A stretch of DNA of 63,768 nucleotides, filler included, from Reclinomonas americana ATCC 50394 (lineage: Eukaryota): the NCBI GenBank assembly GCA_048213135.1. It is 14 parts of 14 records of this genome, joined end to end, with 100 filler letters (N's around TTAATTAATTAA, not from the genome) between each part and the next. Parts side by side here need not be neighbours in the genome. Positions count along the whole stretch, not along the records: positions 39,930 to 44,961 come from AFZH01023613.1; 13 more parts are not named here. One strand, given 5' to 3'. The position numbers were made by a program, and so were the translations under genes. Positions 42,801-44,526 of the stretch are shown here, piece by piece (within the stretch, counting starts at the first letter, position 1; each line of letters opens with the position of its first letter). The notes under the pieces were generated by a model. It saw nothing but the letters and a program-made list of their open reading frames with translations, did not search any database and was not told the origin of the DNA.

Positions 42801-44526
42801 TTAGCGAATCATGTTGAGTCCGCGGCGGGAGAGCGTGCCAAAATGCTCAATCAGCTCGTGTTCACGACGCTCCAGCGCCTCCTGGTCGCCCACCGCGTCC
42901 ATCACAAACAACATTCTGTATGCCAATAAGTGAGGAAGAGGAAATAAGAATGAGAAGAATCGCAGAGAGACGCAACGAGGAGCGAATGCCGAGTGCATGA
43001 CTGCCGAGAGAGGCCAGCACTGCATCGCACAGGCTCGGCAGGCCCGAGCTCCAGCTGTGATTGCGTGCATTTCTCAGCGCCCCTCGCGCATCGCTGAGAT
43101 GCACGTTCCAGCGCTCGCACGCCGAGTTGCTCGCCAGTCCCACGTACCCCTGGTCAGGCTCCGCCTCGTCGTGCACATCCCACACCACCCAATAGTACAC
43201 CGCAAACGGGTCGGTCACCGCCGGCATGTCGCTCCACGAGACCGCCGCGTCCACGCGTCCGCGCAAGAAGCGCACAGCCGCGCGAAAGTGCGACGACCGC
43301 GTCCACCACAACTCGATCTCCTCGGCCGTCAGCTCACCCGTCACCTGCCCCCGCCGCGCCAGACTGTGATAGTGCACGCCCACGGGCGCACAATCATCGC
43401 CGCCCGCCCCAAACTCAATCGCATGCACCACGCGGAACTCGCGCAGGTCCGGATCAAACACCGGCTCGGCTCCGTCGACCAGTCGCTCCAGCAGCAACAC
43501 GCGCTCGCGTCGACGCTCCGCAGCCTGCGCGTAGCTCGCCTTGGCGTCCAGTCCCGGTGTCGGAAGGGCGAGCTCCATCTCGGAAGAAGGCGGTGCAGCC
43601 GCAGCCGACGTGGCCAGTGTATGAAACCCGCGACCGCGCCCAGGACCGCGCACCGTGCCTAGCGTCGGTGGAGGAGGAGGCGCATGCAAGCAGCTGCGCC
43701 ACGTATGCCCCGGCTGCTTGCACGTTGTGCACAGACGCGGACTTCGTGATCGTTGTCGCGTCTCATCGTCCGCCTCGCCATCGTGCGGCGGCACACGCGG
43801 GGAGGGCGGTCCGAGTCGCCCACTGCGGTCCTCCACAGCTGGGCGCGCAGGGCACGTGCGACTGTTGTGTCCAGGCTGCTTGCATGTTCGACATAGTCGC
43901 GGACTTGGCGGGCCTCCGCGTCTGCGGCCTTCCTGCTCGCCCTCACTACTGCTACTGCTCTCGGCCTCCACTTGCACAGTCCGCGCAGGGCATGTCCGAC
44001 TGTTGTGTCCAGGCTGCTTGCACGTTCTGCAAAGGCGCGGACTGGGCGGACCTGCACGTCGTCTGCCTTCCTGCTCGCCCTCACTGCTGCTACTGCTGTT
44101 GGCCTCCACCGGGCGAGCTGCACATGTCCGACTGTTGTGCCCAGGCTGCTTGCATGTTCTGCACAGTCGCGGACTATGCCTTCTCCTGTCTTCCTCACTG
44201 CTGCTCTCTGCACTGCTGCTGCTGCTACTGTCCGCCTCCTCAACTCGACCGGCACATGTTCGCCGATTGTGCCCCGGTTGCCCACACAAACGACACACAC
44301 GGACTCTCACAGTCGCACCTGTGTGACACACACAGAGAGAGAGACAGAGGAGTGAGTGAGTGAAAGCGAGGAGAGTGAAAAAGTGAGTGTGAGAGAGAGC
44401 GCGCAGTTGTGGTCACGTTAATGAGCACACAAAGAGCGCAGTGGATACACAAATGCAACAACAGGTGCAAGAGAGAGACAGAGAGAGAGAGAGATGAACA
44501 AGTTGATCTTCTCTCGCGCAACTCAT
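42801..44526 (-). CDS. Five CCHC zinc knuckles + C-terminal GIY-YIG endonuclease domain
   Basis: The large exon 44318-42977 carries 5x C-x2-C-x3-GH-x4-C and AVYYW..QGYVGLASNSACERWNVH..LCDAVLASLG. After intron 42976-42916, the last exon reads MLFVMDAVGDQEALERREHELIEHFGTLSRRGLNMIR*. The start (ATG at 44526, a 4-nt coding exon, intron 44522-44319) is tentative. Confidence 0.8.

Follow-up and report, generated by a model that had tools for sequence, protein, structure and literature searches.

The homing endonuclease (HEase) I-TevI is a modular protein in which a GIY-YIG nuclease domain, at the N-terminus, is tied by a flexible linker to a nucleic-acid-binding module of the NUMOD and helix-turn-helix (HTH) type, and genes for proteins of this kind lie in a group I intron or stand free in a phage or organelle. 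Repeated zinc-binding modules are found together with nucleases of the same superfamily in phages and in plants. The available text of one study describes T5orf172 HEases, from Vibrio phage ICP1 and other phages, that carry repeated zinc-finger modules (CapR, DUF723, DUF4397; PMC10448857), and the available text of another describes the plant EFFECTOR OF TRANSCRIPTION (ET), a nuclear protein with a GIY-YIG nicking domain and a repeated zinc-binding module (PMC6585611). Here, we analyze a candidate gene of Reclinomonas americana ATCC 50394 (assembly GCA_048213135.1) in which five CCHC zinc knuckles precede a domain that resembles the nuclease head of I-TevI. The gene lies on the minus strand at positions 42,801 to 44,526 of a 63,768-base window, by which we mean the whole stretch of DNA that was analyzed. 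This window is a pseudomolecule of 14 contigs of 1.3–17.9 kb, and statements about neighbors are valid only inside one contig.

The reading that we favor, with a probability of roughly 0.6, is that this locus is a resident nuclear gene, spliced by the spliceosome, whose product would consist of five knuckles, a middle region of ~160 amino acids, and a divergent GIY-YIG domain of I-TevI flavor.

Zinc knuckles ahead of a GIY-YIG-like domain

The N-terminal part of the predicted product contains five exact matches to C-x2-C-x4-H-x4-C, all encoded on the minus strand and separated by acidic linkers rich in Ser and Glu. Two Pfam families recognize them above their curated cut-offs: zf-CCHC_2 (PF13696) with an E-value of 3.5e-15 and 55.9 bits, against a cut-off of 27, and zf-CCHC (PF00098) with an E-value of 2.1e-11 and 43.8 bits, against a cut-off of 20.8, in 5 stretches. 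The exact spacing of all five units and the two Pfam matches bear out the five knuckles that a first-pass annotation of the same DNA had described. At the DNA level the knuckle units are tandem repeats of 132–138 nt, and because two of the copies are 87% identical, the array has expanded recently. Knuckles of this retroviral type usually have single strands as their ligand.

For the region behind the knuckles, Pfam was run on the exon-2 part alone, and the spliced C-terminus was scored with home-built profiles. Among 24,736 Pfam families, the only one listed at E ≤ 10 for the last 87 residues of exon 2 was GIY-YIG (PF01541), with an E-value of 0.21 and 12.3 bits over profile positions 15–41 of 78, which extend from the YIG motif to the Arg/His. 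In the ESM Atlas, residues 335–444 had a GIY-YIG cluster as their first match at 0.90, where a score of 0.9 is reached by 4–10% of shuffled proteins, and the ten best family-bearing matches all came from one clan, including SegE_GIY-YIG.

We collected 62 domains from I-TevI relatives and took the invariant columns from 22 relatives: Y6, Y17, G19, R27, H31, H40, E75, and N90, residues that are catalytic in I-TevI. Aligning the spliced 125-aa C-terminus with the 62 domains by hhalign gave a P-value of 0.0026, with none of 392 shuffles reaching the score, and permissive extension produced a colinear alignment that stretches from YVG to GxN and takes in 82 columns; in global mode, hhalign gave no meaningful alignment. 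When the C-terminus was aligned locally with each of the 62 in turn, the top score was 57, which 1 of 400 shuffles matched. The head scores best against the I-TevI subfamily; P0052, for example, scored 52, which was matched by none of 2000 shuffles, in an alignment that crosses the splice junction and runs from YVG to GLN.

A composite profile of 101 domains (32 bacterial loci defined by PF01541, the 62 I-TevI relatives, and 7 T4 Seg proteins) gave the spliced C-terminus 10.5 bits, ranking it first of 5004 in a comparison with 5000 shuffles. Its matching pieces are colinear, at profile positions 13–36 and 61–91. With this profile, the score was 8.1 for the exon-2 part by itself, 7.2 for the read-through without splicing, and 5.4 for exon 3 by itself. 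In a comparison with the window's own 1,436 six-frame pieces, the N-terminal half in the exon-2 frame ranked 1 of 710 and the C-terminal half in the exon-3 frame ranked 2 of 428, and these two matches lie side by side on the same strand, in the expected order.

Pfam, hhalign, and the composite hidden Markov model (HMM) all place YVG-x8-R-W-x2-H on the YIG...R...H columns (Y17, G19, R27, H31). Members of the superfamily have a conserved catalytic Glu in their C-terminal helix, to which the HEase/UvrC branch adds an Asn. Here the Glu and Asn, in ERREHELI and GLN, are present after splicing only and are colinear at profile positions 61–91 with only 1.9 bits. With the intron removed, the domain would thus have counterparts of the I-TevI invariants Tyr (of the GIY strand, by eye only), Tyr-x-Gly, Arg, His, Glu, and Asn, and possibly of the second invariant His. 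The motifs listed in the first-pass annotation (AVYYW, GYVG, ERWNVH, LCDAVLASLG, ERREHELI, and GLN) were all found at the places it gave. We consider it quite likely, from sequence comparison, that the C-terminus truly has the GIY-YIG fold; catalytic activity would be less probable than the fold.

As to its branch, the head resembles I-TevI and related HEases in its R-W-x2-H, H-S, and C-terminal G-x-N, and shares with them the motif order YVG, R-W-x2-H, H-S, Glu, G-x-N. The sub-threshold matches to PF01541 and to the composite profile agree with the earlier proposal of an HEase/I-TevI flavor over SLX1 or UvrC, and we judge the head not to be UvrC-like. SLX1, as described in the available part of a 2006 survey of the GIY-YIG superfamily, has a GIY-YIG domain that lacks the C-terminal Asn, and a RING/PHD finger comes after this domain at the C-terminus (PMC1564403). 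We rejected SLX1 for the present protein, which has no RING match and ends 4 residues after the GLN whose Asn the SLX1 GIY-YIG lacks. The T5orf172/MUG113 branch was also rejected: PF10544 and PF13455 were unlisted at E ≤ 10, and an alignment to the T5orf172 part of the metagenomic protein P0068 gave z = -0.3. The architecture of an I-TevI-like HEase was set aside as well, on a lack of any NUMOD or I-TevI_DNA-bd match, a reversed domain order, and introns of the spliceosomal type; P0052 and P0022, unlike this protein, do have NUMOD/I-TevI DNA-binding matches.

Several results weigh against a GIY-YIG domain of this kind. The similarity to I-TevI is far below family thresholds: the 12.3 bits of the PF01541 match fall short of the gathering cut-off of 22.6 bits, and the family is unlisted in a Pfam scan of the whole 444-aa exon-2 product. 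Searches of NCBIfam, PHROGs, and PDB sequences, and tblastn against phages, returned nothing relevant for the domain. A narrow HMM of the I-TevI family was at noise level in the six-frame background of the window, with the N-terminal half at rank 4 (iE 4.3) and the C-terminal half outside the top 8. A T4 Seg-protein profile gave no signal. Scores also stayed nearly constant with splicing, at 21.9, 22.0, and 21.8 for the spliced, unspliced, and exon-2-only queries in hhalign and at 52 spliced versus 51 unspliced for the P0052 alignment; the Glu/Asn half therefore adds only 2.4–3.3 bits, and in the composite profile only. Nearly all of the hhalign and pairwise score comes from the YVG...RW..H block. 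The GIY strand, AVYYW, falls outside every profile alignment, all of which begin at profile positions 10–15, and its spacing to YVG, counted from the translation, is ~16–17 residues, versus 11 in I-TevI and 10–11 in the GIY-YIG definition. Finally, the superfamily fold is an alpha/beta sandwich built on a three-stranded sheet, and single-sequence AlphaFold2 modeling of the 230-aa exon-2 part gave a mean pLDDT of 39.3, unusable for a fold search. Of the GIY-YIG fold claimed in the first-pass annotation there thus stands the sub-threshold sequence support from Pfam, the ESM Atlas, and the composite profile, but not a usable structure model.

Introns and gene model

The Glu/Asn half of the domain lies in a different frame from exon 2, and the two are joined by removing a 61-nt GT-AG intron (42976–42916) that begins with GTTGCGT. 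This donor had been called shifted in the first-pass annotation. In the window, the heptamer GTTGCGY occurs 56 times, compared with 24.3 ± 4.7 in shuffles, and at many of these sites CTCAC comes next and CAG after it. The full signature, GTTGCGY-N20-50-CTCAY-N8-30-CAG, occurs 18 times, whereas 1.01 ± 1.02 are expected and the largest shuffle had 5. Because of this excess, GTTGCGT is this organism's standard donor rather than a shifted one. The 18 signature matches span 49–75 nt, and 42916–42976 is among them. A reading without introns, of the trypanosomatid type, was rejected because of the intron signature. We found nothing useful on the donor motif in the literature.

The composition of the 61-nt intron (GC 0.43, 74% pyrimidine) differs from that of its flanking exons (GC 0.66 and 0.60). 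GC by codon position is 0.70/0.32/0.76 in exon 3 and 0.72/0.54/0.77 at the end of exon 2, a coding-type periodicity. Among the GT-donor solutions listed, this intron is the sole one that avoids reading through the CT-rich stretch while preserving the LCDAVLASLG helix as well as the MLFVMDAV strand. We infer that 42916–42976 is removed by splicing, and the signature supports the earlier proposal that a 61-nt intron separates exon 2 from a Glu/Asn half in another frame.

Although the contigs are separate, the plus strand carries 16 of the 18 introns with the signature, and either the contigs may have been oriented beforehand or the genes may be co-directional. In addition, the surroundings of donor sites in the contig at 18034–22716 closely resemble stretches of the contigs at 26186–28437 and 28538–31889 (18355–18450 versus 26400–26500; 21034–21143 versus 28903–29004; 19788 versus 27691). 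The resemblance may mean that these three contigs include haplotigs, or that one gene has recently been copied by segmental duplication.

The minus-strand frame at 42865–44412 is open for 516 codons, with the knuckles starting from 44310, and the exon-2 product of 444 aa has its frame intact. This frame contains no in-frame ATG before the knuckles, which counts against a functional gene unless a first exon with 4 coding nucleotides is accepted. For the 5' end, 140 ATG/GT-AG solutions are possible, and one of them stands out: the donor GTTGCGC comes directly after an ATG at 44526 and a single further base, giving MSATVRVRVCRLCGQPGH... (which reads MSATVRVRVC...). The position of this ATG is also the start coordinate given in the first-pass annotation. 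The putative first intron has a host donor and branch-like motifs, but is 204 nt long as compared to the 49–75 nt of signature introns. The two-intron model starting at 44526 is tentative, because it is one of 140 solutions and because its first intron exceeds the lengths in the signature set. With it, the full product would be about 480–490 aa long.

Because its intron or introns carry the host's splice signature, the gene appears to be a resident of the nuclear genome rather than a fresh viral insert. The first-pass annotation had proposed a recently acquired or domesticated nuclease targeted by a knuckle array, or a novel non-autonomous element. An I-TevI/HEase-flavor head plus a CCHC array is still the most likely content of the gene, but 'recently acquired' is not supported, as the gene carries one intron, perhaps two, with the specific splice signature of its host, and its GC content at third codon positions (GC3) is only mildly raised (0.76–0.77 in the nuclease part versus 0.61–0.69 in four Pfam-anchored host open reading frames (ORFs)). 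We conclude that this is a real nuclear gene, probably spliced and functional.

Table 1. Features of the knuckle gene, its contig, and the window, in window coordinates.
Feature	Position	Strand	Remarks
Exon 1, coding end: predicted start codon plus one base (ATGA)	44523–44526	-	tentative
Putative intron 1, 204 nt	44319–44522	-	GTTGCGC donor; CTCAC 30 nt before CAG acceptor
Exon 2: knuckles, middle region, first GIY-YIG-like half	42977–44318	-	open frame, translation; GC 0.66
CCHC knuckle 1, variant (CRLCGQPGHNRRTC)	44254–44295	-	Pfam, motif match
CCHC knuckle 2 (CRTCKQPGHNSRTC type)	44122–44163	-	tandem repeat D3, 65% identity to reference copy
CCHC knuckle 3 (CRTCKQPGHNSRTC type)	43990–44031	-	tandem repeat D3, 87% identity to reference copy
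CCHC knuckle 4 (CRTCKQPGHNSRTC type)	43852–43893	-	reference copy of repeat D3
CCHC knuckle 5, more divergent variant (CTTCKQPGHTWRSC)	43690–43731	-	Pfam, motif match
Pro/Ala-rich linker and middle region, ~160 aa	43207–43689	-	no family match
GIY-YIG-like domain, first half: AVYYW, YVG strand, R-W-x2-H helix, NHS, LCDAVLASLG helix	42977–43206	-	
Motif AVYYW	43180–43206	-	
Motif GYVG	43129–43149	-	
Motif ERWNVH	43099–43116	-	
Motif LCDAVLASLG	43003–43032	-	
Intron 2, 61 nt, GTTGCGT...CTCAC...CAG	42916–42976	-	signature match
Exon 3, second GIY-YIG-like half: MLFVMDAV strand, ERREHELI (Glu), GLN (Asn)	42801–42915	-	stop codon 42801–42803
Motif ERREHELI	42849–42872	-	
Motif GLN	42813–42821	-	
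Gene-bearing contig	39930–44961		5,032 bp; both ends CT/CA microsatellites
Signature intron examples	8364–8437, 10144–10218, 28903–28959, 41309–41375, 58584–58654		
Spacer sites	17934–18033, 22717–22816, 39830–39929, 44962–45061		and 9 more

The contigs of the window, whose GC content is 0.52–0.60 each, are joined by 13 spacers of the form N44-TTAATTAATTAA-N44 (26 N44 runs altogether), with stops in all frames. On the gene-bearing contig, a plus-strand neighbor with a signature intron of its own (41309–41375) ends near 42403; it and the knuckle gene are therefore convergent, with ~400 bp between their stops. Translation of this contig in six frames gave 44 pieces of 60 aa or longer, and among these we found no reverse transcriptase (RT), no transposase, and no Pfam family above its cut-off. 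Inverted and direct repeats on the contig are of the microsatellite type only, the knuckle repeats excepted, and there are no other terminal repeats. The earlier statement that RT, transposase, and terminal repeats are lacking therefore holds on the contig. The remaining 13 contigs, only 59 kb in all, contain no second copy of the gene.

Opposite the knuckle exon, an antisense frame at 43098–44363 (+) is open for 421 codons and has sub-threshold Pfam noise only; frames of this sort are typical of GC-rich coding DNA, and this one is no gene. Other contigs of the window contain exons at 4927–5367, 15182–15973, 49511–50149, and 53343–54161, all on the plus strand, with an IP3/ryanodine-receptor-like channel, an ion-transport protein, a RasGEF, and a MORN-repeat protein as their products.

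Homologs and precedents

The 230-aa part of the exon-2 product outside the knuckles had no homolog in a word-indexed protein search or in scans of metagenome and viral contigs, and an HMMER scan of 1.84 billion representatives returned two matches, both to tandem-repeat proteins. P0003, a predicted protein of 815 aa with 11 near-identical 75-aa repeats, reached an E-value of 1.7e-11 built from these 11 repeats at 28.5 bits each, and its match is uninformative because the E-value is inflated by the identical repeats. Its repeat unit has 35% identity to residues 76–138 of the 230-aa query, in the middle region, and ends in a GIY-like 'LYYCISN'; P0003 may be a tandemly amplified gene fragment. 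The middle region itself has no family in Pfam, NCBIfam, or PHROGs and no usable match in the ESM Atlas, so the first-pass annotation was right to leave it unassigned. The knuckle region had no match in viral contigs, tblastn against phages found no match, and PDB sequences gave knuckle matches only, or none.

Searching with the whole exon-2 product, we obtained scores for three proteins: a Dunaliella salina protein, which consists of a CCHC array only, P0068, and P0069. The latter two and the cluster members P0070 and P0071 are JGI metagenomic proteins of 524–864 aa, each named 'hypothetical protein', in which CCHC arrays of different lengths occupy the N-terminus and a T5orf172/MUG113 domain the C-terminus; P0069 sits on a 1.1-kb contig. 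These four proteins share the layout for which a search had been suggested, that of several zf-CCHC units with a nuclease of the GIY-YIG clan. Like the R. americana protein, they have a variable array of knuckles of the C-x2-C-GQPGHN-x-RTC type, a linker, and a C-terminal nuclease. The first knuckle matches closely, but BLASTP similarity is limited to the knuckles, and the nuclease head belongs to another family, in keeping with the z-score given above. Because P0068–P0071 differ mainly in the number of knuckles before the same T5orf172 head, the knuckle array evidently expands and contracts.

Compared with I-TevI, the domain order is reversed, with the nuclease C-terminal, the binding module consists of five CCHC knuckles instead of NUMOD/HTH units, and the setting is a nuclear gene with spliceosomal introns; the two are alike in being modular, with a terminal nuclease that a flexible linker connects to the part that binds nucleic acid. 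The phage T5orf172 HEases, in the available account of them, share with this protein the repeated zinc modules, a terminal nuclease of the GIY-YIG superfamily, and intragenic repeats, which recombine in the phage genes (PMC10448857). By the same account, their zinc modules are fingers of other families that bind double-stranded DNA, whereas those studied here are retroviral-type knuckles; their hosts are phages, and their nuclease is T5orf172. ET factors, like the R. americana protein, are eukaryotic nuclear proteins with a GIY-YIG domain and a repeated zinc module; unlike it, they have a UvrC-like GIY-YIG in the N-terminal half, their repeats are another Cys-rich domain, and they are specific to plants, according to the available text (PMC6585611). 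We saw no sequence match between ET factors and this protein.

Our literature searches turned up no paper on a nuclear HEase-type GIY-YIG head with an array of five knuckles, and none of the papers retrieved for 'GIY-YIG' together with 'zinc knuckle' has both terms in its title or abstract. In the available part of the 2006 superfamily survey, the terms 'zinc' and 'knuckle' are absent and only 3 eukaryotic 'unorthodox' HEases are mentioned (PMC1564403). The first-pass annotation had not recognized the architecture. As a design it has parallels, in P0068–P0071 and in the phage T5orf172 HEases as far as these are described (PMC10448857), but these searches yielded no paper that describes the pairing of an I-TevI-type head with knuckles. 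We conclude that the combination is rare, yet that it varies a modular plan already known among nucleases.

Alternative readings and biological meaning

Since all family matches are sub-threshold, an alternative to consider is that the gene encodes a CCHC protein that binds RNA or single-stranded DNA (ssDNA) and has a lineage-specific orphan C-terminus, with the likeness to GIY-YIG being due to chance or a dead relic. In its favor, the score comes from one 24-column block (YVG-x8-RW-x2-H), the narrow I-TevI HMM does not rise above the window background, the 1.84 billion representatives contain no non-knuckle homolog bar the two repeat-inflated matches, and a structure model with a pLDDT of 39.3 leaves the fold unsupported. 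Yet three methods (Pfam, the ESM Atlas, and the home-built profiles) converge on a family that had been named beforehand, the Glu/Asn half is exactly where it is needed once an intron with the host signature is removed, and the spacing from YVG to GxN then fits an I-TevI relative. We therefore regard an orphan C-terminus as unlikely. Less likely still is a decaying or non-autonomous selfish element, that is, a free-standing HEase-like gene, perhaps derived from a giant virus, that the host does not use and that is either a pseudogene or present in many copies. The intact frame of 444 codons, the host-type intron signals that restore the frame exactly, and the host-type donor directly after the candidate ATG all speak against decay, and there is neither a second copy in the 59 kb of the other 13 contigs nor any terminal repeat except microsatellites. 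A selfish element would nonetheless be in line with the lack of an ordinary in-frame start before the knuckles, a GC3 somewhat above that of the four host ORFs, the lack of orthologs in the databases searched, and intragenic repeats of the kind described, in the available text, for phage homing endonuclease genes (PMC10448857).

A link to retroelements has a precedent in Penelope-like elements, which carry GIY-YIG and of which one Chlamys type has an upstream gag-like zf-CCHC ORF, as stated in the available part of one report (PMC8557442). The locus might accordingly be a retroelement fragment, either from a Penelope-like or Chlamys-type element or from a fusion of a gag-like zinc-knuckle ORF with a GIY-YIG endonuclease. 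Neither RT nor any Pfam family above its cut-off was present in the 44 six-frame pieces of the contig, however, and the knuckles and nuclease are in one frame with the stop directly after the nuclease, grounds on which membership in the Penelope-like elements was rejected. Five spaced knuckles with acidic linkers are also, in our own reading, unlike the layout of gag. We consider an origin of this sort very improbable.

If the locus is instead the resident nuclease gene that we favor, the knuckle array would bind single-stranded or structured nucleic acid and tether the C-terminal GIY-YIG head, which would nick or cleave DNA nearby through the usual one-metal Tyr/Arg/Glu chemistry. Such a protein would be built on the 'beads-on-a-string' principle known from homing endonucleases, and its targeting module would be N-terminal. 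It may serve the host, in repair, recombination, or genome defense, or may still act selfishly. A wider proposal, possible but doubtful, is that the gene comes from a class of protist (perhaps giant-virus) nucleases not yet described, in which expandable CCHC arrays that read ssDNA or RNA have been joined independently to different heads of the GIY-YIG superfamily, I-TevI-like here and T5orf172 in P0068–P0071.

The value of the finding is moderate, because zinc modules with a GIY-YIG-type nuclease are already known in phages and plants as a general design and because the claim rests on sub-threshold similarity. The rigid intron signature (GTTGCGY...CTCAY...CAG, 49–75 nt) would be useful for gene prediction in this fragmented assembly. 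If the domain cuts, R. americana would have a eukaryotic nuclear gene that pairs an HEase-type GIY-YIG head with a five-unit knuckle array, which would bear on the domestication of selfish nucleases in protists and could provide a compact means, based on repeats, of directing a nickase to DNA that is single-stranded or structured. Should the wider class exist, it would be a single-strand-targeted counterpart of the zinc-finger homing endonucleases, fixed here as a spliced nuclear gene.

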